From: Candidatus Latescibacterota bacterium
Lineage (GTDB): Bacteria; Latescibacterota; UBA2968; UBA8231
DNA: 64,000 nucleotides
Reading direction: 5' to 3'
Assembly (NCBI GenBank): GCA_965215195.1
Contig: CBDCDC010000002.1
Span: forward strand, 2,720,001-2,784,000
The notes beneath the pieces are model-generated. The model did no database searches. It saw only the letters and a program-made list of their open reading frames with translations, and was not told where the DNA came from. The position numbers and the translations under genes were made by a program. Positions 42,751 through 62,723 of the stretch are shown piece by piece (the first letter of the stretch is position 1; the number at the start of each line of letters is the position of its first letter).

Positions 42751-45700
42751 TTAGTCGGGGTTATCTGCTCTCTCTTTTTTGCGGAATGGAATGCCGAGTT
42801 TCCGCAGGCGGCTGCGCAGGGTGTTGGGATGGAGGCCGAGTAAATTAGCGGCTCCTCGGGGGCCGGAAATGACCCCATTAGTGTGGTTCAGCACACGGGT
42901 CAGGTATTGGCGCAGGTGATCCGCAAGCGGCACAATGGCGAATGCACTTTCGCGCTGGTAGGGTCGGGTCGCGCCGATGCCTTGGGCGAAGTGGTCTGGC
43001 TCGAGGGGGCCTCGACGGGCGGCGATGACGGCGCGCTGCACGGCGTGTTCCAACTGGCGCACATTGCCCGGCCAGTCGTAGGCTTGCAGGACTTCGATCC
43101 CGGCGGGGCTGATGGGCGCGACAGGCTGGTTGAGTTGAGCCGCAAGCTGCGTGGCAAAATGGTCCGCAAGAAGCGGAATGTCTTCCGGGCGTTCCCTCAG
43201 AGGGGGAATACGGAGAGCATAGCCTTCGAGCCGATAGAACAGATCGGCGCGGAAGGTTTGGTTGACGATGGCCTGTTCGAGGTTGTCGTGGGTTGCGGCG
43301 ATGACGCGGACATCAACGGGGATGGCTTGGTTGCCGCCGACTCTGTATAGCCGCTGTTCCTGTAGCACCTCCAGCAAGTTCGCCTGCACATCGAGGGCGA
43401 GATCGCCGATCTCATCGAGGAACAGAGTCCCTTGGTTGGCCCGTTCAAACTTGCCGATGTGGCGGTCGTGCGCCCCGGTATAGGCACCTCTTTCGTGGCC
43501 GAACAACTCGTTGTTGACCAGTTCGCGCCCCAGTGTGCCGCAGTTGACGGTGACAAACGGCGCGTCTCGGCGCGCACTCAACTCGTGAATCGCTTGGGCG
43601 GCAAGGCTCTTGCCGGTGCCGGTTTCGCCGAGTAAGAGCACGGTCAGGTCCGTCTCGGCCGCCTCGAGAAAATCGGCTTCCACTTGGCGCATAACGTCGC
43701 TCTGTCCTACGAACCAGCGTTGGAGTACGGCCATGCGGGCGTCGTCGGTGACCTCGAAGTGGACCCTAACTTGCTCGGAATAGGTGAGGTCCCGGTCGAC
43801 GGCTTGGAGACAGAACGCGTACGTCCCCGGCGGGAGCGGCGGGTACTCCACTTGGGTCTCGGCCGTCTGACGCCACGCCGACGTTAGGCCGTCGAGGCGA
43901 TAGCGGTAGATCAGATGAGCGGGCGGATCGAGTGGGCTGGTGCCCGCAAAGCGGATGCGGACGCTATCAGCCGTACTGGGAAAGCGGATCGCTTCTTGGT
44001 CAGCGGCGACCTCGTAGGCGGCATCGGCCTCTACGCTCACGACGACCGCCTGTGGAGATATGTGCCGGGGCGCGTACCGCACTACGCCCCCTTTGGTCGC
44101 CAGATAGAGTGCCCCGTCGCGGCCTTCCGCGAGGTCGCGGACGGTGTTGCACCAGCGGGGCTCAGGCACCTCAACGTGTTGGAAAACTTGGCCGTCGTAG
44201 CCGCATAGCCCACGGCCTTCAGTGCCCATCCACAGCCGCCCGTCGCCGGCTTGGAGGACGCTGGTGACGGTAGCGCACGGCAGCCCGTCGGCTTGGGTGA
44301 AATGACGAATTCGCCCCTCGTTTAGACACAACAAGCCTCGGTTGGTCCCTATCCACAGCCGCCCATCGGCCCCCTCATACAAGGCAAAGATCAAGCAGGC
44401 GGGCGCATCTACTTTTGCACACGTGGTGCCGTCGAAGCGGTATAGCCCGTGCCCTTCGTCCGCAGAGTTTGACCCCAACCACAGATGCCCTTGACGGCTC
44501 CAAGCGAGGGCGTCAATCTGGGTGGGAGTCGCCGAACCGAACCAGCGAACCTGCCCGTCCTCGACACAGCCCAACCCGCCTATGCGCTGATAGGCAAACC
44601 AGACCCGGCCAGATGCGTCCATCGCAAGGGCCGAAATGGAGTCCGGCGACGCGGGTTGGTGCATCAAGTCCATCTGCTGGCTGTCGCAGTCATAGCGGTA
44701 TAGGCCCGTGCCGGTGCCCCCAAACCATACGCGGTTGTCGCGATCGAGGCATAGAGCCGTGATCTTTTCGCATCCGGGGACGGCTATTCTCTCGACACTG
44801 CTCCGTTGGGTGTCAAAACGGACGAGGCCGCCTTCGGTGCTAGTCCACAAGGGGCCGGCGTCGCTCTGGGCAATGCTACTTGTCGCTGGCAGCCCTTGAT
44901 CTGAGCCGAAGACTTGCAGGCGTTGGCTGTCGTAGCAGTGCAGGCCCCTATCGCGGGTGCCTACCCACAACCGCCCGAGGCGATCGACGCACAAACCCCG
45001 CGAGAAGGACAGGTCGCCCCGGTACGCGAAATCCATTTGCTCGCCATCGCAACAGGCCAAGGCCCCCTCGTAAGAGGGCAGGTATATGGTCTCGGAACGA
45101 GGATCCTCTGCAATGGCGAGAAAGTGAGACTGGCGACTGGGCTCCAGCAGGCGGAACTCCCGGCCGTCGAAGACAAAGACGCCGACAGTGGTGGCCAGCC
45201 AAAGGGTGCCGTCGGACCGCGCCAACAAGCCCGTCACCTCGGCGTTGGGGGCTATCTCGTTAAATCGCGCATGTCTGTGAGGTGTGTCACTCATGCGGTC
45301 GTAGGAGTACAGGCTGCGGCCACCGCACCAGATCGTCCCCTGAGTGTCGATAGCTAAGGCGTAGATGCTTTCGCCGTGGAGGGGGGCGCGATCGGTTAGG
45401 GCGATGAGTCTGAGTTGCTGCCCGTCCCAATGCGCTAGCGCGGGAGACGAGTGGAGTTGCTGCTCCAACCCGAACCAGACCCCACCCTCGTCGTCGGCAC
45501 CGCCGCAAAGAAAACTGTGGGACAAACTGGCGGCCAAGGGGTGAAATCCCTCATCGTCGTACCAAGTAAGGCCGCGGTTGGTGCCCAACCACATCTGACC
45601 GGCCACATCCTCGACGATGCTATGCACTCCGTTGCCGGAAAGGCCGTCTTGGTGCGTAAAGGTCGCCACCGTCTTCTGGTCGAAGCAGGCGACGCCGTGG

Positions 45701-45816
45701 TCGCTCGTACCAATCCACATGCGGTCATGGCGGTCTTGATAGAGACACTCGATGGAGGCGTCGGGCAGTCCTTCGGCTGTAAAATGAGACCAGACCCCTG
45801 CCGTTCTGTCCCACAT
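42751..45816 (-). CDS. Sigma-54 enhancer-binding protein with Reg_prop beta-propellers and Y_Y_Y domain
   Basis: Repeated DxxGRxWIGT blades; YRYRLDG...LPPGTYAF (Y_Y_Y); [44 protein letters not shown]; Fis-type HTH. Confidence 0.9.
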
Positions 45817-45838
45817 AAACGATATCCTCCCTTAGTCA

Positions 45839-45883
45839 CGATATATGGTGAAATTGCGATATATGGTGAAATTATCCATATCG
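45839..45883. promoter_or_regulatory. Tandem 17-bp direct repeat plus inverted half-site; candidate UAS/operator
   Basis: CGATATATGGTGAAATT at 45839 and 45857, followed by CCATATCG. Confidence 0.6.
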
Positions 45884-46026
45884 TTGTTTTTCTTTAAGTT
45901 AAAGAGATTTAGGGCCGTATCCAAGCAAAAAAACACTAAATGCCGTGGTTTTTGACGATTTTCGCAAAAATGCGACAATATATCTAATTTACTATTTATA
46001 AAGGACTTACAAGAATAAGTTACTGT

Positions 46027-46042
46027 TGGCACGATAATTGCA
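46027..46042 (+). promoter_or_regulatory. Sigma-54 (-24/-12) promoter
   Basis: TGGCAC-GATAA-TTGCA matches TGGCAC-N5-TTGCW exactly and is divergent from a bEBP gene. Confidence 0.88.
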
Positions 46043-46101
46043 ATTATTGTATGTAGAGCAACGGACACTACATCGGAAAAATAGGCAACGGTAGGCTTTA
46101 G

Positions 46102-46278
46102 ATGTTGACCTCGTTTAACGCGCCGATTTGGGCCCTGCTGCTCAACGCGTTCGTACTCACCTGTTTTGTTCTGCTGGTGTTGTGGTCGGTTTTGCGTCCG
46201 GGTCGCTCGGCGGCCACCGAGGCGAGTTGGGACGCCTCGCAAGGGCTGTCATCGCTGCAGCAATTGCTAGGGGGCTAA
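46102..46278 (+). CDS. 58-aa single-TM protein, possibly a MauE/DoxX-like remnant
   Basis: Manual translation MLTSFNAPIWALLLNAFVLTCFVLLVLWSVLRPG...; stops 2 nt before the next ATG. Confidence 0.45.
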   Translation: MLTSFNAPIWALLLNAFVLTCFVLLVLWSVLRPGRSAATEASWDASQGLSSLQQLLGG

Positions 46279-46280
46279 CG

Positions 46281-46892
46281 ATGAATCGGGATAGAAAAGA
46301 CCCTGTGACGATGGCCTTTGGCGTCTTGTTGGTGGTGTTGCTGCCGACCTGTTTCCTGTTGGCAAGCCGCTATCAGTCGCTCGATGAGCGCGAGTTGCAG
46401 CCGAAGCCCTTTGTACCCGCGCCTTCCCCGGAGGTGCTGTTGGCGCAAGTGAGCCACGTTGCATCCGACAGTACGCTCCAACTCCAACAGGTATGGGCTG
46501 CCGAGCCGGAACCGACTTCTGGTTTGGTGGCCGACTACCAAGTCATGCGCGGCGACGAGGCGGTCTATCGGCTGGTGCTGTTCCGCTACGACATCGCTTG
46601 TCGTGTGTGCCGGGACGTGCTGGCTGCCGCCCTGTACGAGGGCGACACACTGGCGCAGATCCTCCTGCTCGACGAGTGGGAGGTGCGCGGCGAGCGGGTG
46701 GATACCGCACGCTTTTTGCGCCAATTCGCCGGTCGCTCGGTGGCGGAGGAACTGGCGCTTGAGTCTAATGTCGATGGAATCAGCGGGGCCACGTTTTCAA
46801 CCGGGGGCTTGGTCGAACAACTCAACACCGCGGCGGCGTGGGTGCGGGGGCATCCGCTGGAGACGCCCGCAAGCGAGGAGAAACGACTGTGA
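46281..46892 (+). CDS. Membrane-anchored FMN-binding (RnfG/NqrC-type) domain protein with CxxC
   Basis: N-terminal TM, CRVC, FLRQFAG...VDGISGATFST (covalent flavinylation motif). Confidence 0.8.
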   Translation: MNRDRKDPVTMAFGVLLVVLLPTCFLLASRYQSLDERELQPKPFVPAPSPEVLLAQVSHVASDSTLQLQQVWAAEPEPTSGLVADYQVMRGDEAVYRLVLFRYDIACRVCRDVLAAALYEGDTLAQILLLDEWEVRGERVDTARFLRQFAGRSVAEELALESNVDGISGATFSTGGLVEQLNTAAAWVRGHPLETPASEEKRL

Positions 46893-47428
46893 ACGCTCTC
46901 AGACCCAATCGCGGGGCTACGACTTTGATCGTGGCCACGGGCATCCTGTTGGGGGCCTGTACCTTCTTGGCGGCCAAGATCGTCAACCCCCCTCCCATTG
47001 ATCCGCTCGATGTGGAGTTTTGGGATTTGCTGGGTACGCAAGCGGCCGTGCTGGAATTAGAAGATCTGGCGGGCACGGGCACGGTTTCTAACGCGCAATT
47101 TGTGAACCAGCCCTATTTGCTCATTTTCGCCGACTCTGAATGCAGTGCCTGCGAGAGCATCTATCCGCACCTGCTGCGCGCCTCGCAGGTACAAGGAGTG
47201 AATGTCCTGTTCATTGCCTCGGGCGACCGGCCGGCGATGCACGACAAAATGGAGGAACACAGTTTTGCGTTCCCCGTCGCCTTTGATTCCCTGTTGACGG
47301 CGAATGCGCCTTTTGCGGTAAAGGCTTTTCCGGCCGCTGTCTTGGTGGATGCCGAAGGCAACATTGCCAAAGCCGCTACCGGCGACCAGACCGCCATAGC
47401 CGTAATACGCTTGGCTGGAAGGTCCTGA
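46889..47428 (+). CDS. TlpA/MauD-like thioredoxin-fold protein
   Basis: N-terminal TM, FADSECSAC, FPVAFD, AFPAAVLVDAEG. GTG overlaps the upstream TGA. Confidence 0.82.
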   Translation: MNALRPNRGATTLIVATGILLGACTFLAAKIVNPPPIDPLDVEFWDLLGTQAAVLELEDLAGTGTVSNAQFVNQPYLLIFADSECSACESIYPHLLRASQVQGVNVLFIASGDRPAMHDKMEEHSFAFPVAFDSLLTANAPFAVKAFPAAVLVDAEGNIAKAATGDQTAIAVIRLAGRS

Positions 47429-47443
47429 AAGGATGAATGCGCC

Positions 47444-48010
47444 ATGCAATTTGTAACGCTCTTGCGTCGTCCGGTGGTGTGGACGGTGATGGCCTGTGCC
47501 GCAGTCGTGCTCTTTTTGGCGTTGCGTCCCCCTTCGTCGGCCATCTCGCCCGTGGTCTGGACCGAGCCGTCGGCCAACCCTCTGTCCAAGGTGCTGCGAT
47601 CGGGGGATGCTGCGCCGGACTTCGCGCTGCCGGCCGTGCAGGGTGGCGTTGTAGCATTGAGTGCGTTGCAGGGAAAGTCCGCCCTGATCGCCTTTGTTAC
47701 GGCGGAATGCCCGTATTGTCAAAAATTAAACAAGCAACTCGAAGCCTTTGAACTGAATGCGGATCAACAACTCGTGTTCATCTGCACCGGGGAAGAGGGT
47801 GCGCGGAAGATTAGCGAGACCTATTCCTTTACGTACCCGGTGTTAATTGACTCGGCTGGCGCAGTCTCACAGGCGTACAAGACCCCCGGGGTGCCTACGG
47901 TGTATCAGATCGATACCGAGGGGACGGTGGTGGACTTGGTGGTGGGGTGGCCGCCGGCGTGGGAGTTTGTGCGGGGTTTTGGCCGAGTACAGCCGAGCGA
48001 AGGCTCTTGA
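47444..48010 (+). CDS. TlpA/MauD-like thiol-disulfide oxidoreductase
   Basis: N-terminal TM, GDAAPDFALP, FVTAECPYC, GVPTVYQIDTEG. Confidence 0.87.
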   Translation: MQFVTLLRRPVVWTVMACAAVVLFLALRPPSSAISPVVWTEPSANPLSKVLRSGDAAPDFALPAVQGGVVALSALQGKSALIAFVTAECPYCQKLNKQLEAFELNADQQLVFICTGEEGARKISETYSFTYPVLIDSAGAVSQAYKTPGVPTVYQIDTEGTVVDLVVGWPPAWEFVRGFGRVQPSEGS

Positions 48011-48039
48011 GGCCATTCGCTCAATGACCACTATGGCCC

Positions 48040-48138
48040 AGAAAGGAGGTGCTATCCCGTGTTCGCAGGTTTGATTCCAAGTCAGCGACCACAACGGTTC
48101 GCTGATCCTTTTTTCTATCACTCAAGGAGGATTTAGTT
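48040..48138 (+). promoter_or_regulatory. Conserved leader copy 1: strong SD, 25-aa uORF, hairpin and T-tract
   Basis: AGAAAGGAGGTG; uORF 48059-48136; hairpin TCAGCGACC-ACAAC-GGTTCGCTGA followed by TCCTTTTTT. Confidence 0.65.
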
Positions 48139-48495
48139 ATGAACTCTTTGCCTTTGTTCTTGCAGTCGGCGCTGCTGATGCCGCTGGTAGCCCCGCTGGT
48201 GGAGTTCGCCACGTCGACCAGCGGCCACGTTGAGCCGCGCCAGGGGTTGGCCTTGGGGTGGTTGGGCAGCGTGGTGGCTGGGCTGGCGGTGGTGTTCGGC
48301 ACGGCCGACCGGGCGCAGGCCGATTCCTGCTACGGGATATCCCCTGGCAGTCCCGGCACTTGGGTCTGCTCCAACGAGATGTGCGCCTTTGATCACCATG
48401 GAGACGGCCTAGCGGCGTATGACAAATACTATGTCCACAGTAGGTCTGACCATGGCTGCAGCAGCACGTCAAGGTCCTGTAGCTGTCCTCCGTGA
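48139..48495 (+). CDS. Cys-rich secreted peptide precursor (about 61-aa leader plus 57-aa 6-Cys core)
   Basis: SD AAGGAGG. Leader ...VEPRQGLALGWLGSVVAGLAVVFG..AQA is shared with the genes at 58140 and 59125; core DSCYGISPG...CSCPP. Confidence 0.8.
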   Translation: MNSLPLFLQSALLMPLVAPLVEFATSTSGHVEPRQGLALGWLGSVVAGLAVVFGTADRAQADSCYGISPGSPGTWVCSNEMCAFDHHGDGLAAYDKYYVHSRSDHGCSSTSRSCSCPP

Positions 48496-48562
48496 TCTAC
48501 CATCCGGGTATATCGCGGCTGTCCAAACAGGAGGATGGTTCTACAGTAAGTGCTGAGAGGTA

Positions 48563-48603
48563 TAGCCCATGTGGCACTCTCGGGCCGGGTGCCACATGGG
48601 CTA
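48563..48603 (+). terminator. 15-bp perfect stem-loop downstream of the peptide gene (mRNA stabiliser or partial terminator)
   Basis: TAGCCCATGTGGCAC-11 nt-GTGCCACATGGGCTA; no U-tract. Confidence 0.7.
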
Positions 48604-49074
48604 ATGGTCCTCTGTTCTACTGCGTCTATCCCTCGAATAGAGGTAGGGTGTTCGATCACCTAACACTTCTTCACTAACTCTGGAGGTGCATTATGCGCTG
48701 CTTGATCGTTGCGATTGGATTATTGGCGGCTCCGCTGGGAGTCTTGGCCATAACGTGGGATTTTGACGACGGCACTACTGGGGGCTGGACCGCCCACGAG
48801 AGCGAACTAGGCGATCTCAGGGCCATTACTCCCACCACAGTGTACAGCGAAGTCGAAGCCGGCGTCTGGCGCATTGCGCCGGTGCCGAATGGGCAGATAC
48901 CGGCCATTCGCTTGCTCTCGCCGCTGATTGGGGAAGACTCGGCTCTGTTCGACTCGATCACCCTCCGGCTGCGTATCCTCCACGATCGCCCCACCGGGGG
49001 GAACCTCCTGATGACGTGGTCCAATGCCGAGTCCCGACGCCGCAAGCAGGAAACGGGGGGCCACGAACTAAATA

Positions 49075-49959
49075 ACCAATGGTGCTAGTGGGCTACAAGC
49101 TAAATTCCGCGATGGACAACGGGACGAATCCATTTTCATCCGGTTGCAATCCATGCCACTGTGCCAGCAGGTTAAAGGCGGCCATGGCCGCGCTCAGATG
49201 CGCTCTAAAGTAGGCCCAAGCTCGATGGGTCTGTCGCTTGAACCGGCCAATGCGGGTCAGCATCGAAAAGACGGTCTCGATGACCATCCGGTCGCCCCAG
49301 GTTTTGCGGGGACACACTTTCAGATTAGCCGGATCACCTTCTTTGGCATGAAAGCCTTGGTCGCTGAGGAGGATCATCTGCTCTTCGTAGCGACCAATCA
49401 TCGGGTGAAAGACCGAATCGTGGACATTGGCCGTGTTACAATCCCAATCGACGATCAAGCCCCACTGGTTGACGATCAAGCCCAGCTTGCCGCCGACGAT
49501 CCAGCGGTGATTGGACAACCCTTTCTGGCCGATAGGGTGAGCGGAGCGGCCTTCGCGTACTGGATGGATCAACTCGATGCCATAGCTATCGATCACGCCT
49601 AAGGGGGTGGGGTCCGCTCGAAAGCGATCGGTCCAGTCCGCATGGGCGACAAACAGGCGGAACAAGCGGGTGCGTTCGGGCAGGCGCGGGAAAAAGGCGC
49701 GCCAATCGCGCACTACCCAGCGATAAAACGCCCGTTTGCCGTCCCCTTTGAGCGCATATAGAACCGCCAGGGTCACCGTTTCGCTGGGATATAAGGCGGC
49801 TTGGGGGTGTTTGGGCACATCGCCCATCTGGTTGTCGATCCGATAGAAGAGGGCTATTATAAACTCGGCCGTGGTCATGGGACGCTCCTTCGCTGGAAGG
49901 GGGGACACCCTCAGCGTAGGAACTACCTCGACCACGGTCAACTCACTAGCACCATTGGT
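49075..49959 (-). mobile_element. IS982-like element copy 2 (885 bp, intact ends)
   Basis: TIR ACCAATGGTGCTAGTG; 6-bp target duplication TAAATA. Confidence 0.9.
49093..49941 (-). CDS. IS982-like DDE transposase
   Basis: Near-identical to 37359-38207. Confidence 0.8.
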   Translation of the reverse strand: MTVVEVVPTLRVSPLPAKERPMTTAEFIIALFYRIDNQMGDVPKHPQAALYPSETVTLAVLYALKGDGKRAFYRWVVRDWRAFFPRLPERTRLFRLFVAHADWTDRFRADPTPLGVIDSYGIELIHPVREGRSAHPIGQKGLSNHRWIVGGKLGLIVNQWGLIVDWDCNTANVHDSVFHPMIGRYEEQMILLSDQGFHAKEGDPANLKVCPRKTWGDRMVIETVFSMLTRIGRFKRQTHRAWAYFRAHLSAAMAAFNLLAQWHGLQPDENGFVPLSIAEFSL

Positions 49960-54036: not shown

Positions 54037-54276
54037 ATGCTGGATAAATTGCGCCAACACATAGCGACTACCTTGCAGCGTTTGAGCGTCCGGCTAGAAC
54101 GAGCCGGTACGGTTGAAGGGCTGCCGCGCCACGAGTGTCCCGTATTGATCTTTTTTCACGGCTATAGCTTGGCCCATACCATACGTCCTCTAGTTGTAGG
54201 ACGAGCACTACGGGTGCGCGGCTATCCCGTAGAATTCGCGGGGGTGGGGCCTCACGCAGACCGAATCGCCGTGTAG
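54037..54276 (+). pseudogene. N-terminal fragment of a GT-B (GT1/GT28-like) glycosyltransferase
   Basis: LIFFHGYSLAHTIRPLVVGRALRVRGYPVEFAG resembles a GT-B N-terminus; truncated at 79 aa. Confidence 0.55.
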
Positions 54277-54281
54277 TAAGG

Positions 54282-54521
54282 TTGGACGCAGTGTTTGTCG
54301 ATCGCGATTTCCGCCAGCCGGCCCTCGTCGTCAACATGGGCAGAAAGAACGGTGTGCCACTGCGGGAAGGCCACTATCCACTGCAAGGGTTGGGCGGAAC
54401 GGTCATAAGCGGCGATGTGGATGGAGACGGGGACCTAGACTTGGCCGTGCTGGAAAATGCCGTGCGCGGTGGGGGCAGTGGCCTATACATCCTGTCTAAC
54501 CAAACCAAGACGGACGATTGA
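54282..54521 (+). pseudogene. C-terminal fragment of an FG-GAP protein lacking FlgD
   Basis: PALVVNMGRKNGVPLREGHYPLQGLGGTVISGDVDGDGDLDLAVL aligns with the last blade of the neighbouring paralogs. Confidence 0.65.
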
Positions 54522-54566
54522 ATAGGGGGGCGCGTGTTAGGTGCTGCCGAAAAGAGAGGGCATAAG

Positions 54567-55901
54567 ATGATAAGACGGCCATGGAAAGTCCCATTCCGAA
54601 AAAATAGAAAGCTGCAAAGCTGCTTGGCGTTGTCGCTGGCCTTGCATCTGCTGGTGATCTTCGGACTCCCGCGCCACGAGCGGGTCACTCACTTTCCCGT
54701 CCAACCGCCGATCATGGTGAAGTTTACCAAGAAGCGCCCGCTGCCGCGCACCCTCGCCCGCCGCCAACGGCCCCAGCAGCGCCCGTTGGTGCGCCGCCCC
54801 GCCCTGCAAGCGGCTCCGGTCGTAGCGATGCGGCCGGCTCCCTCGGCGACGCGCCCGCTACCGGTGTTCAAGTCGTCGGCTCTCCGACTGCCAACGGCGG
54901 CACTGCCGAATCAACTGGTGATGCCCGTGCCGGATTTCCCCGCTCGGCAGATTGGTCCATCCCTGCAGGCGGGGGCGCTGGAAGGGACGCGGCAAGGGGC
55001 CGACGAGATTGACTTGGCGTTGGAACTGCTGGATGTGGAAGCGATGGACACGGGTCAGCACCGGGCGATGGTGGTCGTCGATCCAAAAGACCGGCGTCAG
55101 CTCAAGGGCTTTCTCTATTTGTCGAGTGTCCACAGCGAAGCGCTTGAGCGCGCCGAGGCCAGCGCGGCTTCGGAGCGCAGCGGTGGGTGGTCGCGCAGCA
55201 TTGCCGAGCAGCGCATGCTGCAAGGACTCGCCGACAAAATGAGCGAGCGCACCGGCGTACATACCCAAGTGCTCGACGGCCTCGCCTTGGACGACCCGCG
55301 GCTGATGCAGGTGCCATTTCTGTTGCTGACGGTTCGGAGCCAAGTCGCCTTCACCCAAGCCGAAGCCAAAAACTTGGGACGTTATCTAACCTCGGGCGGG
55401 TTCCTCTATGCGGATATTGTCTCCCAGCCTCTCTCTCGCGCGGGCGGCTATCAACACGACTTGCCGGCGTTGCGCGATTTCATTCGCCAAGCCTTTGGGC
55501 AGATAGACTACGCCGAACACAAAGATTGGTCTTTCGTGCGGTTGCCGCCCGAGCACCCGCTCTACCATTGCTTCTACGACGTGGACTCCCTGCCGCGCGG
55601 CTTCTGGGACATCATGTTCTGGTATTGGAACACTGGGAGTCGCTTTGAATTGTCGCCCAATTACTTGGAGGGCATTGAGGTGGATGGCCGTATCGTGGGA
55701 GTTTACTCGCAGAAGTGCTACGCGGAAATGTGGGCTGGCGAGGCCGAGCGGATCCGCGAGGCGGATCGGGCTGCCGACAAAGCCGGTCGTTTTGACACGG
55801 GCGCGGATGAGTTGCCGGTCTATGACCTCGGCGTCAATATCGTGGTGTACGCGTTGACGCGGGAGGGATCACTGGCTCAACAATTCGTCGAGGCGGACTG
55901 A
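54567..55901 (+). CDS. DUF4159-domain protein with N-terminal TM and Pro/Arg-rich linker, copy 1
   Basis: SLALHLLV anchor; PFLLLT, YLTSGGFLYAD, LPPEHPLYHCFYD, LEGIEVDGR, LGVNIVVYALT. Confidence 0.78.
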   Translation: MIRRPWKVPFRKNRKLQSCLALSLALHLLVIFGLPRHERVTHFPVQPPIMVKFTKKRPLPRTLARRQRPQQRPLVRRPALQAAPVVAMRPAPSATRPLPVFKSSALRLPTAALPNQLVMPVPDFPARQIGPSLQAGALEGTRQGADEIDLALELLDVEAMDTGQHRAMVVVDPKDRRQLKGFLYLSSVHSEALERAEASAASERSGGWSRSIAEQRMLQGLADKMSERTGVHTQVLDGLALDDPRLMQVPFLLLTVRSQVAFTQAEAKNLGRYLTSGGFLYADIVSQPLSRAGGYQHDLPALRDFIRQAFGQIDYAEHKDWSFVRLPPEHPLYHCFYDVDSLPRGFWDIMFWYWNTGSRFELSPNYLEGIEVDGRIVGVYSQKCYAEMWAGEAERIREADRAADKAGRFDTGADELPVYDLGVNIVVYALTREGSLAQQFVEAD

Positions 55902-55921: not shown

Positions 55922-58027
55922 ATGCGCTACTTGCTCGTTGCTATTGGATTGTTGTCGGCTCCGCTTGGAGCCTTCGCTTTAACGTGGGATTTTGACGAGG
56001 GCACCACTTGGGGATGGACCGCTCAGGAGAGTCTCTTAGGCACTGACCATGGTCCCACCACGGTGTACAGCGAAGTCGAAGGCGGCGTCTGGCGCATTGC
56101 GCCGGTGCCGAGCGGGAAACGACCCGCCATTAGCTTGGTCTCGCCGCTGATAGGGGAAGATTCGGCCCTGTTCGACTGGGTCACCTTACGGCTACGGATC
56201 CTCCACGGCCACCCCACTGAGGGGGACCTCCTGATGGCATGGTCCAATGTCGAGTCCCGACGCCGCAAGCAGGAAGCGGGACGAGACGCAAACAGGGCGG
56301 GGTTTCGTACGGGCCGTTCTCAACTGTATCCCATCGAATGGGAAAACATCACCATAGAGATACGCGCCTTGGAAGCCGCGGCGGCGGCAGACCCCGAAGC
56401 AGAGATCATTTGGCAGGACACCCTCTTCCACGTCCAGCTAGACCTAAACTTAAACCCCGAACCCCAAGGTCCGGCCGATTATCCGGCTTTTGTCGAGGTG
56501 GACTGGATTCAACTAACGGGTACCGAAGAGCTGCTGTTAGGGGAATTGTCGCCCCGGGAGCACGTCGTGGCGGCTAGGTTGCCCGGGGCGTTGTTGGCTG
56601 ACCCGCGTTTTTCTACACTGGGCCAAGGTATCGGTACCCCAGGATCTCAAGGTACTTTGGGCGATGTGGATGGCGATGGGGATGCCGATTTAGTAGTGGT
56701 CCGGCGAGCGGGCTGGACCATAGCGACCAGCGATGGCTGGGGCGGTTTGGTCCCCACCCAAGAGGGTCTCCGCTCAAGCCGGGGTATTCCAAGGATTGCG
56801 GGGGGCGATTTCGACGAGGATGGGCTGCTCGATCTGGCCGTTGGTAGCGGTCTTACCCTCGAATTGTGGCTCAATCGGGGCGAGGATGGCTTTGAAACCA
56901 TCCTCCAGATATCCGATGGCTACTTCCTTGGCTTGGCCGATGGCGATGGCGACGGCGATGTGGATCTGTTGGTGGTTGAGGAGCTCGACGACCGATGGTC
57001 CAACGCGACTCTGTGGCTCAATGATGGCGCGGCCGGGTTTGCCGACCGCGATCGGTTCGTCCTCGACACCGAAGAGGAACTCGGTACTTCCCTGCTGGCA
57101 GGGCAATCGTTGGGCGAGGCCGTGCGCCTATTGTGGAACCGACCGTGCTACAAGCCGGTGGGGCCTTGGCGTCTGACCCAGCCGTGGGCGGCCAGCCCGA
57201 GCCCGCCGCCCCCGCTGTTTTTTGACGCCGCGGTCAATCCCTGCGACTTGCACCTGCTCGCCGACCTAAATGGGGATGGGGCGGTGGAGTTGGTCGGGAC
57301 GCCCGAGCGGAATCTGTTCTTCGACTTTTCTTTTAGCAACACCTACCACGGTTTGGCACTGTGGCGGGTGGACGCCTCGGGCGGGGTAGAACGCCACACC
57401 CTGCTCGGTCCGCAGGTGCTCGTGTCGGCTCCATTTCAGGGTGGGGGGGTCATTGCCAGCGACCTGACCGGCGATGGCCTTTTGGACTTGGCCGTGGTCG
57501 ATGGCAACGTGGCCACCGGGCCGGCGCTGGTAGTCTTGGTCGGCCAGCGCGATGGGGTGCCCGTCATCGAAGGGCGCTATCCCTTGCCAGGCATCGGCAA
57601 CAAAGTGCTCGCGGGCGATGTCAACGGCGATGGGGCGACCGATCTGGTCGTGCTGGCGCGGAGTGGGGGCGACGGCGGGGCCTTCGTCTTCCTCAACCAA
57701 GGCGTTCCGGCTACGGCCGTCGCGGCTGAGACGGCGACCCCGCCTACGGCCTTTGCTCTTGGTGCTAACTATCCCAACCCGTTCAATCCGGCCACGACCC
57801 TCCCCGTATCGGTGGCGGCTGGTGCGGGCGACGTGAATGTAACCATTTACAACGTCTTGGGGCAGCCGGTGCGCGAGGTGTGGAACGGTCCGCTGGCGGC
57901 GGGCGAGCATCGACTCACTTGGGATGGCCGGGACGCGCAGGGGCAAGCCGTCGCCGCCGGGGTCTATCTGGTGCGGCTGCACCAAGGCGACCACACGCTC
58001 CTCCGCAAGATGGTCAAGCTCGAATAG
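55922..58027 (+). CDS. Secreted FG-GAP/VCBS-repeat plus FlgD-Ig protein, copy 3
   Basis: Paralog of 51823-54015 with the same architecture. Confidence 0.85.
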   Translation: MRYLLVAIGLLSAPLGAFALTWDFDEGTTWGWTAQESLLGTDHGPTTVYSEVEGGVWRIAPVPSGKRPAISLVSPLIGEDSALFDWVTLRLRILHGHPTEGDLLMAWSNVESRRRKQEAGRDANRAGFRTGRSQLYPIEWENITIEIRALEAAAAADPEAEIIWQDTLFHVQLDLNLNPEPQGPADYPAFVEVDWIQLTGTEELLLGELSPREHVVAARLPGALLADPRFSTLGQGIGTPGSQGTLGDVDGDGDADLVVVRRAGWTIATSDGWGGLVPTQEGLRSSRGIPRIAGGDFDEDGLLDLAVGSGLTLELWLNRGEDGFETILQISDGYFLGLADGDGDGDVDLLVVEELDDRWSNATLWLNDGAAGFADRDRFVLDTEEELGTSLLAGQSLGEAVRLLWNRPCYKPVGPWRLTQPWAASPSPPPPLFFDAAVNPCDLHLLADLNGDGAVELVGTPERNLFFDFSFSNTYHGLALWRVDASGGVERHTLLGPQVLVSAPFQGGGVIASDLTGDGLLDLAVVDGNVATGPALVVLVGQRDGVPVIEGRYPLPGIGNKVLAGDVNGDGATDLVVLARSGGDGGAFVFLNQGVPATAVAAETATPPTAFALGANYPNPFNPATTLPVSVAAGAGDVNVTIYNVLGQPVREVWNGPLAAGEHRLTWDGRDAQGQAVAAGVYLVRLHQGDHTLLRKMVKLE

Positions 58028-58041
58028 ACGACCCTTCGGCC

Positions 58042-58139
58042 AGAAAGGAGGTGTATCCCATGCTCGCAGGTTTGATGCCCCGTCAGCAACCCCAACGGTT
58101 GGCTGATCTTTTTCCGACCCTTTTGAGGAGGAATGCATT
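58042..58139 (+). promoter_or_regulatory. Conserved leader copy 2
   Basis: AGAAAGGAGGTG; uORF 58060-58152; hairpin TCAGCAACC-CCAAC-GGTTGGCTGA followed by TCTTTTT. Confidence 0.65.
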
Positions 58140-59012
58140 ATGCCGTCTTTAAGGTTTGTTTTTCAGGCCCTGCTGGTGGAGTTCGCCCCGTCGTCGCGTG
58201 GGCACGTCGAGCCGCGTCAGGGGTTGGCGCTGGGGTGGCTGGGCAGCGTGGTGGTTGGGCTGGTGGTGGTGTTCGGCATGGCGGACGAGACGCAGGCCGA
58301 TCCCTGCTTTGGAATCGACGTGGGAAGCTATGGATTTAATATAACGCCGTATCCATGCGAGCGGCAAGACCACGAACCCGTCGAGTATTGGCAGGATCAT
58401 TATTTTCACCAGCCTAGGACTCCGGGCAATTCTGGGACTCCGAGCTGTACGTATCTGTATTCTACCTGTGGCCCCAGTACGGCCCCAGTCGTCGTGGCCG
58501 ATACGACCACTTCCCCCTGCTTTGGAATCGCCGCGGGAAGCAGAGGCTCGTACACAACGCCGTATCCATGCGAGTGGCAAAACCACGAACCCGTCGAGTA
58601 TTGGCAGGAGTATTATTCTCACCAGCCTGAGACTCCGGGCGATCCTGAGACTCCGAGATGTGCTTATCTGTATTCTACCTGTGGCCCCAGTACGGCCACG
58701 GCTATTGCGGCTGAGACGGCGGCGACGCCTACGGCCTTGGTCCTTGGTGCCAACTATCCCAACCCGTTCAATCCGGCCACGATCATCCCCGTATCGGTGG
58801 CTGCTGGCACCGGAAATGTGGACTTAATCATCTACAACGTCTTGGGGCAGCCGGTGCGTACGGTGTGGAACGGTCCGCTGGCGGCGGGCGAGCATCGGCT
58901 AACGTGGGATGGTCGAGACGCGCAGGGGCAGCCCGTCGCCGCTGGGGTCTATTTGTATCGGTTGCAGGTGGGCGACCACACGCGCCTCCGCAAGATGGTC
59001 AAACTTGATTAG
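58140..59012 (+). CDS. Conserved leader peptide plus two 4-Cys modules plus FlgD-Ig domain
   Basis: VEPRQGLALGWLG leader; two C-x16-C-x29-C-x6-C modules containing EPVEYWQ; NYPNPFNP C-terminal domain. Confidence 0.82.
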   Translation: MPSLRFVFQALLVEFAPSSRGHVEPRQGLALGWLGSVVVGLVVVFGMADETQADPCFGIDVGSYGFNITPYPCERQDHEPVEYWQDHYFHQPRTPGNSGTPSCTYLYSTCGPSTAPVVVADTTTSPCFGIAAGSRGSYTTPYPCEWQNHEPVEYWQEYYSHQPETPGDPETPRCAYLYSTCGPSTATAIAAETAATPTALVLGANYPNPFNPATIIPVSVAAGTGNVDLIIYNVLGQPVRTVWNGPLAAGEHRLTWDGRDAQGQPVAAGVYLYRLQVGDHTRLRKMVKLD

Positions 59013-59026
59013 ACGACCCTTCGGCC

Positions 59027-59124
59027 AGAAAGGAAGTGTATCTCATGCTCGCAGGCTTGATGCCCCGTCAGCAACCCCAACGGTTTGCTGATCTTTTTCC
59101 TATCCTTTTGAGGAGGAATGCATT
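59027..59124 (+). promoter_or_regulatory. Conserved leader copy 3
   Basis: AGAAAGGAAGTG; uORF 59045-59137; hairpin TCAGCAACC-CCAAC-GGTTTGCTGA followed by TCTTTTT. Confidence 0.65.
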
Positions 59125-59991
59125 ATGCGGTCTTTAAGGTTTGTTTTTCAGGCCCTGCTGGTGGAGTTCGCCATGTCGTCGCGTGGGCACGTGGAGCCGC
59201 GTCAGGGGTTGGCACTGGGGTGGTTGGGCAGCGTGGCGGCTGGGCTGGCGGTGGTGTTCGGCGCGGTGGACGAGACGCCGGCCGATCCTTGCTATGGAAT
59301 CGCCGAGGGAAGCAGTGGATCGCGCACAACGTCGTATCTCTGCGAGTGGCAAGACCACGAACCTGTCGAGTATTGGCAGGATCATTATTTCCACCATCCT
59401 GGGACTCCAAGATGTACTTATCAGTATTCTACATGTGTGGTGGCTGGGCTGGCGGTGGTGTTCGGCGCGGTGGACGAGACGCCGGCACCGGCCGATCCTT
59501 GCTATGGAATCGCCGAGGGAAGCAGAGGATCGCACAAAACGCCGTATCCCTGCGAGTGGCAAGACCATGCACCCGTTGAGTATTGGCAGGATCATTATTT
59601 TCACGATCCTGAGACTTCGGACGATTCTGGGACTCCGAGCTGTACTTATCTGTATTCTACATGCGGCCCCAGTACGGCCACGGCTATCGAGGCCGAGACG
59701 ATGGCGACGCCGACGGCCTTTGCCCTTGGTGCCAACTACCCCAATCCGTTCAATCCGGCCACGACCATCCCCGTATCGGTGGCGGATGCAGGCGCGGTGG
59801 ATGTAACGATCTACAACGTCTTGGGACAGCCGGTGCGTACGGTGTGGAATGGTCCGCTGGCGGCGGGTGTGCATCGGCTGACGTGGGATGGCCGGGACGC
59901 GCAGGGGCAGCCGGTCTCCGCCGGAGTCTATCTGGTGCGGCTGCATCAAGGCGACCACACGCGCCTCCGCAAAATGGTCAAACTCGAATAG
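59125..59991 (+). CDS. Conserved leader peptide plus two 4-Cys modules plus FlgD-Ig domain (paralog)
   Basis: Same leader. The second module is preceded by a repeat of the leader end, VVAGLAVVFGAVDETPA. Confidence 0.82.
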   Translation: MRSLRFVFQALLVEFAMSSRGHVEPRQGLALGWLGSVAAGLAVVFGAVDETPADPCYGIAEGSSGSRTTSYLCEWQDHEPVEYWQDHYFHHPGTPRCTYQYSTCVVAGLAVVFGAVDETPAPADPCYGIAEGSRGSHKTPYPCEWQDHAPVEYWQDHYFHDPETSDDSGTPSCTYLYSTCGPSTATAIEAETMATPTAFALGANYPNPFNPATTIPVSVADAGAVDVTIYNVLGQPVRTVWNGPLAAGVHRLTWDGRDAQGQPVSAGVYLVRLHQGDHTRLRKMVKLE

Positions 59992-60127
59992 ACACACGAA
60001 CTGGGAGCGGACATGCTGGAGACATTGCGTCAACACCTAGCGGCTGGCAGCGTTTCATGGAACGATTGAATGGGGAGGGCGTGGGGGCGTGGATTAGGCC
60101 CTGCCGAAAAGAGAGAGGCATAAGACG

Positions 60128-61471
60128 ATGAGACGACCGTGGAAAGTACCGTTCCGAAGCAATAGAAAGCTGCAAAGCTGCTTGGCACTGTCGCTGGCTT
60201 TGCATCTGCTGGTGATCTTCGGACTCCCGCGCCACGAGCGGGTTACTCACTTTCCCGTGCAACCGCCGATCATGGTGAAGTTTACCAAGAAGCGCCCGCT
60301 GCCGCGCACCCTCACCCGTCGGCAACGACCCCAACAGCGTCCGTTGGTGCGCCGCCCCGCCCTGCAAGCGGCCCCGGTCGTGGCGATGCGGCCGGCACCC
60401 TCGGCGTCGCGCCCGCTGCCGGTGTTCCAGACATCGGTGCTTCGGCTGCCGTCGGCATCGCTGCCGGATCGGCTGGTGTTGCCGGTGCCGGATTTCCCCG
60501 CTCGGCACATTGGTCCGCAGATGCAGGCTGGGGCACTGGAAGGGACGCGGCAGGGCGCGGACGAGATTGACTTGTCCTTGGAACTGATGGATGTGCAGGC
60601 GATGGACACCGGCCAGCATCGGGCGATGGTGGTGGTTGATCCAAAAGATCGGCGCAAGCTCAAGGGATTCCTTTATATGTCCGGCATCTACAGCCCTTCC
60701 ATTGAACGGGCTGACCGTGAACAGGCCAAGTACAGTCAATCGCGCTGGTGGAGCCAGCCGATCCGACAACGCCGCTGGGCGGAACGGCGGATGTTACAAG
60801 GGTTGGCCGATGAGATGACCGCCCAGACACAGGTTCACGTCGAAGTGCGCGATGCGGTTCGGCTCGACGATCCGCAGCTTTTGCAAGTCCCCTTCGTCCT
60901 GATGACCGTCAACACCCCCTTTGAGTTTACCGACAGCGAGGCGACCCAGCTCGGGGCGTATTTAACGTCGGGTGGCTTCCTATTTGTGGATATTGGAAAC
61001 TTTTTGCTGGACAATTACCGCGATGAGGAATTGGACATTCCGATGGTGCGTTCCTTCCTTCGCGCCAGCTTTCAAGCGGTGGGGTATCAAGAAGGGAAGG
61101 ACTGGCAGTTTAGACGCCTAGCGATAACGCATCCGCTCTATCATTGCTTTTACAATATAAACAGTCTGCCCCGGGGGATGCGCGATATGCACTCTCTAAA
61201 AAGAGAATCTCCCTCGTTAACTCCGGACTATTTGGAGGGCATCGTCGTAGGGGAGCAGTTAGTGGGGGTGTACTCGATGCGCGGCTACGCCGATTTCTGG
61301 GCGGGAATCGCCCGGCAGGAGCTAGATTTTGTTTTAGAGGATGGCATAGTCAACAGCCCGTTTCTCGCCAGTGCCGAGGAGCCGATGGTCTATAATTTGG
61401 GCGTCAATCTCTTGGTGTACGCCCTGACGCGCGAGGGGTCACTAGCCCAACAATTCGTCGAGGCGGACTGA
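60128..61471 (+). CDS. DUF4159-domain protein, copy 2
   Basis: About 180 N-terminal aa near-identical to 54567-55901; YLTSGGFL, HPLYHCFY, LGVNLLVYALT. Confidence 0.78.
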   Translation: MRRPWKVPFRSNRKLQSCLALSLALHLLVIFGLPRHERVTHFPVQPPIMVKFTKKRPLPRTLTRRQRPQQRPLVRRPALQAAPVVAMRPAPSASRPLPVFQTSVLRLPSASLPDRLVLPVPDFPARHIGPQMQAGALEGTRQGADEIDLSLELMDVQAMDTGQHRAMVVVDPKDRRKLKGFLYMSGIYSPSIERADREQAKYSQSRWWSQPIRQRRWAERRMLQGLADEMTAQTQVHVEVRDAVRLDDPQLLQVPFVLMTVNTPFEFTDSEATQLGAYLTSGGFLFVDIGNFLLDNYRDEELDIPMVRSFLRASFQAVGYQEGKDWQFRRLAITHPLYHCFYNINSLPRGMRDMHSLKRESPSLTPDYLEGIVVGEQLVGVYSMRGYADFWAGIARQELDFVLEDGIVNSPFLASAEEPMVYNLGVNLLVYALTREGSLAQQFVEAD

Positions 61472-61517
61472 GGGCTGTTGTGCCGTGGTACTATAACTGA
61501 GGAGGGCACTGCGAGGT

Positions 61518-62723
61518 ATGGAAATCATTCCGTTAATTCCCGAATGCGACGTTGCCACACAGAGGGCACGGGCCACACAAGACCGCAATATGCGCGCCCA
61601 AGTGAGGGCTTGTCTCCTGTTAGGGCGCTATTACAAGGAACAAGGGGAACTCGACAGAGCCGAAGCCCTGTATAAAAGAGTCCTTAAAAAGGGACGGCAG
61701 TGGCAAGATGACGCGCTAGAAGCCGATGCGTGTAGCGGCTTGGGGCTGATGTACCAAGTCAAGGGACGGATGGACGAGGCGGTTGACTATCTCAATAAGG
61801 CCTTTGCGATCAATAATGAACGCCGCGATGAGGAGCGTCTGGCTGTCAGCTATAGCAACAGAGGCTTTGTCGCTCATCTGCAAGGAAAAATCGCCGAGGC
61901 ACGAGAATTGCACACCCGCGCTCAGCAACTTCACGAGGCGTTGGGCAATAGGGCCTATTGGGCGGAAGAATGCGGCAACTTGGGGCAGTTGGCACTCCAG
62001 CAAAACAAACCGGAGGAAGCCGAAGCCTACTTCCAGCAGGGACTAAAAGTGTGTCAAGAACTCGGCGATCTACCGGGTATTTCCGGCCACTACCAGGGCT
62101 TGGGGCTGGCCTATCTTGGACAGCAGCGTTTAGCCGACGCCGAAGCTATCCTTAAAAAAGGCATTGCGATTGAGGAGCGGCTCCAGCGCGACGAGGGCTT
62201 GGCTCATCATTACAGTGTCTTGGGCGGCGTATATAGCCAGATGGGTCAGTTTGATGAGGCCGAAGAAATGTATCGTCGGACGCTGGCCATCTACCGAAAA
62301 TTGGGTAATAAACAGTTTGAGGCTCGCACCATGAGCGGTCTGGGGCAGATGCTGAGGACGAAAGGCGACCCGCGAGAAGCCGCGGCGTGGTTCCAGCAGG
62401 CGAGGGATCTGTTTGACGCAATTGGAGATAACAAAGGCCGGGCGGCACAAGCGGCTCTTTTGGGCGATAACTATATGGACGTTGAAAACCTTAAGGCGGC
62501 CGAGGAAGCGTATCGGCAGGCGGTGCAACTGTTTGTGAAGGTATCGGACTTGGAGGCCGTGGCCGACGTTAGAGTTCGCTTGGGGCGGGTCTATGCGTCG
62601 AATCAGGCTCCTTTTGATGCCGTACTTCAGTGGCGGCAAGCCTTGGAACTATACCGCGAACTTCAGCGAGACGACAAGGTTGAGTTCGTAGAAGAGTTGC
62701 TGCGGACGAGCGGCCGAGTGTAA
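61518..62723 (+). CDS. Tetratricopeptide-repeat protein
   Basis: About nine 40-aa TPR-like repeats (LG..Y...G..DEA...Y..AL.I); SD GAGGT. Confidence 0.88.
   Translation: MEIIPLIPECDVATQRARATQDRNMRAQVRACLLLGRYYKEQGELDRAEALYKRVLKKGRQWQDDALEADACSGLGLMYQVKGRMDEAVDYLNKAFAINNERRDEERLAVSYSNRGFVAHLQGKIAEARELHTRAQQLHEALGNRAYWAEECGNLGQLALQQNKPEEAEAYFQQGLKVCQELGDLPGISGHYQGLGLAYLGQQRLADAEAILKKGIAIEERLQRDEGLAHHYSVLGGVYSQMGQFDEAEEMYRRTLAIYRKLGNKQFEARTMSGLGQMLRTKGDPREAAAWFQQARDLFDAIGDNKGRAAQAALLGDNYMDVENLKAAEEAYRQAVQLFVKVSDLEAVADVRVRLGRVYASNQAPFDAVLQWRQALELYRELQRDDKVEFVEELLRTSGRV

Follow-up and report, generated by a model that had tools for sequence, protein, structure and literature searches.

What is made by a locus in which a σ54 regulator, a group of membrane-anchored redox proteins and a small cysteine-rich peptide are encoded ahead of a series of large FG-GAP proteins? 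The question is raised by positions 42751-62723 of a 64,000-nucleotide stretch of DNA from a Candidatus Latescibacterota bacterium (C2:2720001-2784000 of genome G000), referred to here as the window, which outside this locus carries unrelated housekeeping genes. An earlier note on the same DNA had proposed an unnamed, σ54-controlled system that makes, redox-folds and displays Cys-rich peptides, and this interpretation is partly supported by the analyses described below. Comparison with related loci indicates that the window locus is a partly decayed copy of a larger gene system, and that the deepest conserved core of this system comprises two TlpA-like thioredoxins, an A24 (prepilin-type) aspartyl protease and the peptide, with a flavin mononucleotide (FMN)-binding protein as their usual companion. 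The system is undescribed and is confined to one Latescibacterota family. Full-text literature searching yielded no description of the gene set, and DUF4159, a domain of some of its members, was encountered there only in a Pfam database article.

The decay became apparent from other loci of the same genome. A hidden Markov model of the peptide family detected three more free copies, spaced by about 2.85 kb around C2:2365276-2371316, and the region containing them, L001/L002, located about 400 kb upstream of the window, represents this locus in intact and larger form. It starts with an enhancer-binding protein (bEBP) gene, a σ54-like site and a gene for a 372-aa Peptidase_A24 protein, followed by genes for the FMN protein and for thioredoxins A and B (TrxA and TrxB), and it continues with three peptide and FG-GAP pairs, a GT1-transglutaminase fusion, a GT2 gene and more FG-GAP and DUF4159 genes. 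The intact A24 gene spans L001:7317-8435, and one of the intact precursors is encoded at L001:10309-10635. In the window, the A24 gene has been reduced to a relic, a 58-aa hydrophobic open reading frame (ORF) at 46102-46278 (+) that aligns to approximately residues 115-165 and the C-terminal tail of the intact protein. Relative to the orthologous locus L016, a 140-nt internal piece (46109-46248) has been kept, sequences of about 390 and 617 nt on its two sides have been deleted, and both catalytic Asp motifs have been lost. The reading of this ORF as a functional small membrane protein, as the earlier note had it, was therefore rejected; the key enzyme had been missed because the window copy is deleted. 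A third, diverged locus, denoted type-2, lies at about C2:2144399-2193195, where the A24, FMN and thioredoxin genes share 36-40% identity with their type-1 counterparts. Type-2 loci of three other genomes carry the same parts in another order.

The peptide gene of the window (48139-48495, +) encodes a precursor of 118 aa with six Cys, consisting of a 61-aa leader and a 57-aa core. The leader is made up of LVEFATSTSGHVEPRQGLALGW, a Gly-rich hydrophobic helix and the tripeptide AQA. Searching 5.8 billion proteins revealed 182 relatives of 64-207 aa, and a profile of the leader alone found 78 among 1,835,955,588 representative proteins, nearly all of them 49-137 aa in length with the leader at the N-terminus. 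For statistics we used the 117 members that carry the leader motif. Their first 55 residues are free of Cys, the core is directly preceded by (A/T/G)QA in 111 of the 117, and an AxA site is also present in most of 16 distant members. The cores, 47-63 aa long, contain four (n = 29), six (n = 64) or eight (n = 18) Cys, such that an even number occurs in 111 of them and an odd number in six. Leader residues S26, S28, G29, R34, G36, L37, G40, W41, S44 and G48 are invariant across both locus types, and the G29 position is invariant among the 16 distant members as well.

Between genomes, the 43-aa canonical leader retains 91.7% amino acid identity, as opposed to 35% for the core. At the 4-fold degenerate sites of the leader the sequences differ at 0.32, similar to the 0.25-0.31 found for the neighbouring enzymes, and since these sites have diverged as in the neighbouring genes, conservation must act on the protein. 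Substitution patterns thus place the leader under strong purifying selection, and gene conversion or recent DNA exchange was rejected as a source of the leader identity on the same grounds. The cores are hypervariable and probably under diversifying selection. An AlphaFold2 model of the core shows a three-stranded antiparallel sheet with a predicted local distance difference test score (pLDDT) of 79-96. A Foldseek search of the core against the PDB gave nothing at an E-value of 0.001 or below (best 1.7; laterosporulin at a probability of 0.15), and a wide VIA-align search, with a best Z-score of 3.4, revealed no related solved fold. The products look, as the earlier note had suggested, like exported disulfide-rich mini-proteins, given the even Cys numbers and the confident sheet model. 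The peptide has no Pfam or NCBIfam match, and among these families there is none that would make it a subunit of a characterised enzyme.

Some individual family members are unusual. Protein P0127 (174 aa) consists of the C-terminal half of an A24 protein joined directly to a leader (…ALREGVKFATSTSGHVEPRQ…), and is either the product of a gene-fusing deletion or an assembly chimera. The ORF L018:9965-10333 encodes a normal leader followed by a core lacking the Cys pattern and is probably frameshifted. A metagenome scan with the distant leader peptide A8 yielded no relative, and the distant peptide A7 has no conserved stretch.

For the genome scans one genome per species was included, with the peptide alignment as query and with just two peptide patterns. 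They yielded 16 loci from 10 assemblies, all of which are titled as Latescibacterota metagenome-assembled genomes except for one labelled Gemmatimonadota. The recurring order is bEBP, A24, FMN, TrxA, TrxB, peptide, FG-GAP, GT1-transglutaminase, GT2 and a tetratricopeptide repeat (TPR) protein. The segment from A24 to the peptide is contiguous in eight of the 16 loci and two more start at the FMN gene on a contig end; after the peptide, most of the loci run on into the remaining genes. The TPR protein recurs at the same relative place, with 80-82% identity in L006, L010 and L018 and with 33-36% in L007, L008, L011, L013, L015, L016 and L017. The claim that the gene set is conserved and unnamed has thus held up, with the order recurring in 10 other assemblies and twice more in the same genome.

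Within the phylum, the peptide profile matches 28 of 168 genomes, all from one family, and it gave no match in 92 genomes from 13 other families. The family is represented by 76 genomes, of which the A24 profile likewise matches 28; both genes are present in 26, the peptide alone in two, A24 alone in two and neither in 46, and both occur in the same five of 18 genera. Outside g1, the genus of the window, the core is kept at 25-40% identity, in shuffled order and without FG-GAP genes, in three other genera. In genus g9 the order is FMN-TrxA-TrxB-A24-peptide, amid metabolic genes and with no σ54 site or bEBP nearby, and in g18 it is TrxA-TrxB-A24-peptide. In g8 the cassette is FMN-TrxA-TrxB-peptide, and other peptide matches elsewhere in the same genome have A24 genes at a distance of about 1.5 kb. 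The σ54 control, the FG-GAP proteins of the type IX secretion system (T9SS), DUF4159, the glycosyltransferases and the TPR protein were seen only in g1.

In g9 and g18, what comes after the peptide gene is not FG-GAP. Two paralogs of a secreted family lie there instead (L034:10771-12691 and L036:10861-12939), each about 300-340 aa long and with the motif DGSVEDW...GEP(S/T)L. The only one of these paralogs that was scanned, L034:10771-11661, has no Pfam match.

A24 enzymes are characterised by two catalytic Asp residues, the second lying in a GxGD-type motif. The intact paralog P0121 scores 30.7 bits against the PF01478 gathering cut-off of 26.5, a genome search with PF01478 gave 33.5 and 36.7 bits, and the g9 ortholog scores 40.9; most of the homologs carry a precomputed PF01478 annotation and one is named "A24 family peptidase" by NCBI. 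The sequences YTDIxxRxIPN (T32-D33) and GFWxxGDAKL (G92-D93-A94-K95) are invariant in nine proteins, including a 41%-identical type-2 member, and both Asp motifs are found in the g9 and g18 copies too. The protein has about eight hydrophobic segments, and a phmmer search of it against PDB sequences gave no match.

The two A24 genes of the genome are its only ones, and they are those of the two intact loci. The genome is 95.2% complete in two contigs and yielded no T2SSF, T2SSE or N_methyl match, while control genomes gave such matches under the same searches. Among the 28 A24-positive genomes, T2SSE exceeds its cut-off in just four and does not do so in 24. Type IV filament systems, as described in the part of one account that deals with their core machinery, combine the peptidase with pilins, an assembly ATPase and a platform protein (PMC4471445), and a second source likewise counts the peptidase, the ATPase and the platform as members of one core set (PMC13705601). 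The present loci do not belong to this class, with a peptidase but no T2SSE, T2SSF or pilins. The leader also falls outside the definition of a class III signal or type IV pilin, which in the relevant part of PMC4471445 calls for a hydrophilic stretch of 6-26 aa with Gly as its last residue and, immediately after it, about 21 hydrophobic residues with a Glu at position 5. The peptide leader has two Gly that are invariant or nearly so, G29 and G36, and a hydrophobic tract of 19 residues follows G36. We read A24 as dedicated to the leader, there being no type IV filament machinery in the genome for it to serve.

The putative redox set lies directly upstream of the peptide. The membrane-anchored FMN protein (46281-46892, +) carries CRVC (C107, C110) and DGISGAT (T171). 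Its Pfam FMN_bind (PF04205) score of 19.2 bits is below the cut-off of 22, and homologs at about 40% identity carry precomputed PF04205. Its model (pLDDT 84.7) has exclusively RnfG or NqrC structures among the top 14 Foldseek/PDB rows, with a best E-value of 3.8e-5. Across 37 sequences, some sharing as little as 30% identity, RxDIxCxxCRD and DG(I/L)(S/T)GAT do not vary, and the second of these fits the flavinylation motif [S/T]GA[S/T], as this is given in one section of PMC8238504. ApbE is encoded elsewhere in the genome (273.9 bits). The fold model, the motif and the presence of ApbE together identify an RnfG/NqrC-like protein, with flavinylation predicted, and so bear out what the earlier note had said of an FMN-binding CxxC protein with an SGAT motif.

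Both thioredoxins are membrane anchored and TlpA/ResA-like. TrxA (46838-47428, +), whose true start is probably downstream of 46838, carries CSAC, and TrxB (47444-48010, +) carries CPYC; with 34.6 and 61.4 bits they exceed the AhpC-TSA/Redoxin cut-off of 26, but they fall below the ResA, MauD and DsbE equivalog cut-offs. MauD, to which the earlier note had compared them, is rejected as a family assignment, with 32.6 and 29.0 bits against a TIGR02661 cut-off of 188.6. No DsbB and no VKOR was detected in the genome, and one DsbD_TM gene is present.

Transcription of the type-1 locus appears to be under σ54 control. The bEBP (42751-45816, minus strand; 1021 aa) combines Reg_prop and Y_Y_Y propeller domains with Sigma54_activat and HTH_8 in Pfam/NCBIfam scans and has GAYTGA at residue 777 in its AAA+ Sigma54_activat domain. 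Divergent from it is an exact match to a -24/-12 promoter, TGGCACGATAATTGCA, at 46027-46042 (+). In the 64 kb, three matches to this sequence with at most one mismatch were found versus 0.82 expected, and this one is the sole exact match. In nine of 10 type-1 loci a comparable site precedes the A24 gene by 56-114 nt, and the σ54 promoter is likewise conserved at all five type-2 sites examined, which upholds the claim of a consensus promoter, and rpoN is present in the genome. Promoter, bEBP and rpoN together predict a σ54-dependent operon. As the bEBPs have no hydrophobic segment, the propeller sensor is read as cytoplasmic.

Elsewhere in the window, a 305-aa coiled-coil protein is encoded at 25494-26411 (-), and the 5' part of its frame contains a σ54-like site with one mismatch, TGGCATGTAAGTTGCT, at 26287-26302 (-).

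FG-GAP genes accompany the peptides closely, with one located within 700 nt downstream of 34 of 40 distinct free peptide genes (from 46 genes, four too near a locus end were dropped and two fused forms were counted separately). The proteins are moderately variable, with a Sec signal and a C-terminal domain of the TIGR04183 family. All three of those in the window end in FlgD_ig/Por_Secre_tail. The partnership between FG-GAP proteins and peptides that the earlier note envisaged is seen only as adjacency, which was not found in the three other genera that keep the core. Prediction of a complex between FG-GAP residues 20-645 and the upstream peptide core (residues 56-108) gave scores of 0.00 and 0.01 in runs without controls. 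TIGR04183, with a cut-off of 23 bits, gives 36.0 and 34.2 bits for products of the locus, which, together with PorU (628.6 bits, above cut-off) and SprA_N in the genome, classifies them as probable T9SS type A cargo. The two genes in which a leader and two 4-Cys modules precede the sorting domain, at 58140-59012 (+; 34.2 bits against 23) and 59125-59991 (+), agree with the earlier idea of surface-sorted forms, since they fit the T9SS that the genome encodes. In the second, the leader helix is partly duplicated, part of it (VVAGLAVVFGAVDETPA) being repeated ahead of the second Cys module, which suggests recombination at the leader/core boundary.

How might these parts work together? We consider it somewhat better than an even bet that they constitute a pathway dedicated to the processing and oxidative folding of exported disulfide-rich mini-proteins. 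Taking gene content, conservation and predicted folds as the observed facts, we infer the following steps. The near-invariant leader would insert the precursor in the inner membrane such that the N-terminus stays inside and the Cys-rich core comes to lie outside, and the GxGD intramembrane protease A24 would cut the leader at the cytoplasmic face, after G29 (SxSG) or G36 (RxG). The two TlpA-like thioredoxins would form or shuffle two to four disulfides in the core, acting with the ApbE-flavinylated RnfG/NqrC-like protein and its own CxxC, whose flavin may be the electron sink in a genome where DsbB and VKOR were not detected. A cut at the conserved AxA would then free the folded core of 47-63 aa. 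Free forms would be periplasmic or secreted, and forms with the type A C-terminal domain would leave via the T9SS. The additions found in this genus alone comprise the pairing of a peptide gene with the following FG-GAP propeller as T9SS cargo, the DUF4159, TPR and two glycosyltransferase proteins, and the σ54 promoter and cytoplasmic propeller-sensor bEBP that would drive the operon.

Several observations weigh against this pathway. The co-occurrence counts are not independent events because the genomes are kin; the g18 cassettes yielded no FMN gene, and neither FG-GAP, DUF4159 and glycosyltransferase genes nor σ54 control were seen outside g1. The estimated contamination of the genome is 8.5%, though all three loci share one 4.86-Mb contig. 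The leader has no Glu5, with W41 lying five residues past G36 and usually an Arg five past G29; the hydrophobic tract begins seven residues after G29, type-1 leaders are 29-36 aa long and give no N_methyl match, and G36 is substituted in some distant members. Given the conserved AxA, signal peptidase I alone could release the core, and the role of A24 would then be open. TlpA/ResA-type proteins are usually reductants and the genome has a DsbD_TM gene, so that the redox set may run in either direction. Moreover, TrxB of one g9 locus (L034, approximately 8470-9038) has CPYS instead of CPYC and has lost the resolving Cys.

The weakness concerning AxA is the starting point of the main alternative for the protease step, in which signal peptidase I releases the core and A24 then cuts the leftover signal peptide, such that an N-terminal fragment enters the cytoplasm as a signal, for example for the bEBP propeller. 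The wide conservation of AxA, in the 111 of 117 members and in most distant ones, is in keeping with this, as are a leader whose N-terminal part is conserved beyond the needs of export alone and bEBPs whose sensor would face the cytoplasm. GxGD proteases prefer Gly/Ser-rich substrate helices, and the helix here, with G36, G40, S44, G48 and G54, resembles this preference. We nevertheless judge such feedback improbable: to our knowledge no A24-family enzyme acts as a signal-peptide peptidase, the bEBPs of the window type and the L001 type are just 31% identical yet the same leader is served, and the minimal g9 cassette has no nearby bEBP or σ54 site. A second alternative retains leader removal by A24 and treats the peptide as pilin-like, with the helix remaining as an anchor in the membrane or providing the assembly contacts of a filament or surface array in which the known ATPase and platform play no part. 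An adjacent dedicated A24 gene, an invariant Gly, a 19-residue helix and a small disulfide-bonded beta-sheet head are reminiscent of the lollipop layout described in part of PMC4471445. Set against this are the lack of T2SSE, T2SSF and N_methyl matches in the genome, the missing Glu5, the conserved AxA after the helix and the sorting domain of the fused forms, which requires a soluble periplasmic intermediate, and these make a pilin-like role very improbable.

It could also be argued that no dedicated pathway exists and that the locus is an ordinary expansion of T9SS FG-GAP adhesins beside general envelope redox genes, with peptides that merely have a long Sec signal. FG-GAP paralogs number at least 29 in this genome, next to 19 matches for DUF4159 and 51 for the C-terminal domain, repeated adjacency is explicable by tandem duplication alone, and the window copy has decayed with its peptide ORFs retained. 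We find this the least probable of the explanations, because the core persists, shuffled and divergent, without FG-GAP genes in three other genera, the co-occurrence of peptide and A24 is 26/2/2/46, the leader profile is so rare among representative proteins (78 matches) and the leader is under strong purifying selection. A further proposal concerns function and is compatible with the maturation pathway that we favour, namely that the mini-proteins are defensin- or glycocin-like peptides for antimicrobial action or competition, with the large secreted neighbours providing immunity, delivery or display. Hypervariable cores behind a conserved leader, multi-copy arrays, and the combination of oxidoreductases, glycosyltransferases and a leader protease, which recalls the logic of sublancin-type clusters, are suggestive of such a role; the Pfam scans of the loci revealed no ABC/C39 exporter or small immunity gene, structure searches produced no significant match (Foldseek E-value 1.7, VIA Z-score 3.4) and the minimal cassettes lack glycosyltransferases. 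This function, too, we regard as improbable.

On a broader and more speculative level, A24 may have been recruited from type IV filaments into a stand-alone maturation or signalling device that cuts a Gly-rich signal-anchor and may release a leader fragment as feedback to the σ54 activator, and the flavinylated RnfG-like CxxC protein may be a periplasmic disulfide generator that replaces DsbB/VKOR and is a counterpart of QSOX/Erv chemistry. We think this combined proposal rather unlikely.

The system shares features with several known ones. With the prepilin peptidases of type IV filament systems (PilD, TadV and FlaK/PibD) it has in common a GxGD protease of the A24 family with both Asp motifs, an invariant Gly before a hydrophobic helix in the substrate, and a protease gene beside the presumed substrates. 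It differs in the lack of an assembly ATPase, a platform protein and an N_methyl pilin anywhere in the genome, and in substrates that have no Glu5, have an AxA after the helix, and carry a hypervariable Cys-rich cargo, sometimes with a T9SS sorting domain. With ApbE-flavinylated RnfG/NqrC proteins it shares the single-anchor FMN_bind fold, the [S/T]GA[S/T] motif and ApbE in the genome. The sections of Meheust et al. 2021 dealing with hybrid flavin clusters predict a DsbD-DUF3570-thioredoxin-DUF4266 type in which, as here, an FMN protein is genetically coupled to thioredoxin-like proteins, but do not contain the present combination (PMC8238504). The present locus, in contrast to those hybrids as set out there and to Rnf/Nqr, has no Rnf/Nqr partners, DsbD, DUF3570 or DUF4266, and its FMN protein has an invariant CxxC of its own and shares a predicted operon with the protease and its putative Cys-rich substrates.

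Another parallel in gene composition is provided by bacteriocins. Their maturation can involve thiol-disulfide oxidoreductases, as in the sublancin cluster sunA-sunT-bdbA-sunS-bdbB and in PedC/BrcD. The sublancin-type clusters, like ours, combine a Cys peptide that carries a leader, two oxidoreductases with a thioredoxin fold, a glycosyltransferase and a protease that removes the leader. They have a double-glycine leader and a C39-ABC exporter, in contrast to the membrane-inserting Sec-type signal and the A24 protease found here together with σ54 regulation and beta-sheet cores of 47-63 aa. The PedC/BrcD NCBIfam model, which has a cut-off of 120 bits, gives a negligible match of 17.1. The MauD/MauE-MauA system similarly places membrane-anchored TlpA-like redoxins beside a small Cys-rich exported protein, but the MauD equivalog scores are not reached and no MauE, MauA or MauB was found. 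As T9SS type A cargo, the FG-GAP proteins and fused peptide forms exceed the TIGR04183 cut-off in a genome with PorU and SprA; the free peptides, however, have no sorting domain and the T9SS accounts for none of the core genes.

Conserved leaders with hypervariable cores are known from the prochlorosin-type precursors of ribosomally synthesised and post-translationally modified peptides (RiPPs) and from the conotoxin superfamilies, and QSOX and Erv are flavin sulfhydryl oxidases. The leader and core identities of our family follow the first pattern, and the logic of making disulfides with a flavin, a CxxC and a thioredoxin fold follows the second, although there is no sequence or fold relation to any of these. 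The predicted covalent FMN on an RnfG-like fold differs from the flavin adenine dinucleotide on the Erv fold, and the loci, unlike those of prochlorosin-type RiPPs, encode no RiPP-modifying enzyme family. A RiPP cluster was rejected on the grounds that no radical SAM enzyme, LanM, YcaO or similar occurs in Pfam scans of the window locus, L001 and L002, and that the leader is a membrane-inserting signal.

We know of no bacterial prepilin-type peptidase that works outside type IV filament systems. If A24 processes these leaders, it would be the first such bacterial case and would widen the role of the A24 family. The FMN-CxxC protein with two thioredoxins, in a genome with no detectable DsbB or VKOR, is a directly testable candidate for a new means of periplasmic disulfide generation. 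The near-invariant leader combined with hypervariable beta-sheet cores of four, six or eight Cys points to an unexplored pool of stable mini-proteins, which occur in multi-copy arrays with each gene paired with a large surface protein, and the leader provides a simple handle for finding and expressing them. The mini-proteins may serve in competition, adhesion or host interaction.

The genes listed for the window locus in the earlier note were all found in place by Pfam/NCBIfam scans and direct reading, and the remainder of the locus illustrates both its composition and its decay. From the bEBP through the promoter the window is 82% identical in DNA to L016, the bEBPs being orthologous with 79% amino acid identity, and from 46268 to 48600 it is 91.8% identical to L001. 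Downstream of the peptide, the three FG-GAP paralogs reported earlier are present, and what had been overlooked is that the first is a single gene in two pieces, an N-terminal fragment at 48693-49088 (+) and a remainder with propeller and T9SS-type C-terminal domain at 49968-51788 (+), interrupted at about codon 124 by an 889-bp insertion sequence (IS) at 49073-49961 (-) with a DDE_Tnp_1_3 transposase gene at 49093-49941. FG-GAP protein 2 (51823-54015, +) comprises a Sec signal, an N-terminal domain without family, FG-GAP repeats and FlgD_ig/Por_Secre_tail. It is followed by a deletion scar (54037-54506, +) joining the start of a GT1-transglutaminase gene (54037-54270) to the tail of an FG-GAP' gene (54318-54506) of the type without a C-terminal domain. 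The former is the glycosyltransferase remnant noticed earlier, and it retains the first 78 codons with 97% identity to an intact paralog; that the deletion of glycosyltransferase genes is a sign of decay had not been recognised, and comparison with L002 shows that the GT2 gene has been lost as well. The glycosyltransferases themselves are generic. Pfam scans further identified DUF4159 protein 1 (54534-55901, +), with an N-terminal membrane anchor and a Pro/Arg-rich linker, FG-GAP protein 3 (55922-58027, +), DUF4159 protein 2 (60128-61471, +) and the TPR protein (61518-62723, +). Lacking its own protease and glycosyltransferases, the window copy would have to rely on the intact locus that lies about 400 kb upstream.

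The IS is probably still active, given that the genome contains 20 near-full copies at 94% identity or more, nine of them at 99% or more. Two copies lie in the window, that at 49073-49961 and a second with its transposase ORF at 37359-38207 (-). Among read contigs of four runs covering 45800-50300, a joint 49052>49970 with 20 other letters was found; it matches the IS-free paralogs, and is thus no pointer to an empty IS site.

Decay is not limited to the window. The type-2 TrxB of the same genome appears split in two (L020:15211-15552 and L020:13811-14116), so this locus may be partly decayed too. On the other contig, an A24 fragment with stop codons (C1:685299-685511) adjoins an FG-GAP gene (C1:685564-687774) and a DUF4159 gene (C1:687884-689239), and the region looks like a fourth, decayed locus. 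Finally, trios of GT1-transglutaminase, GT2 and TPR genes occur without a nearby peptide at C1:797259-802275, C2:2271518-2276251 and C2:4361591-4366551, which suggests that the trio is a module of wider use.

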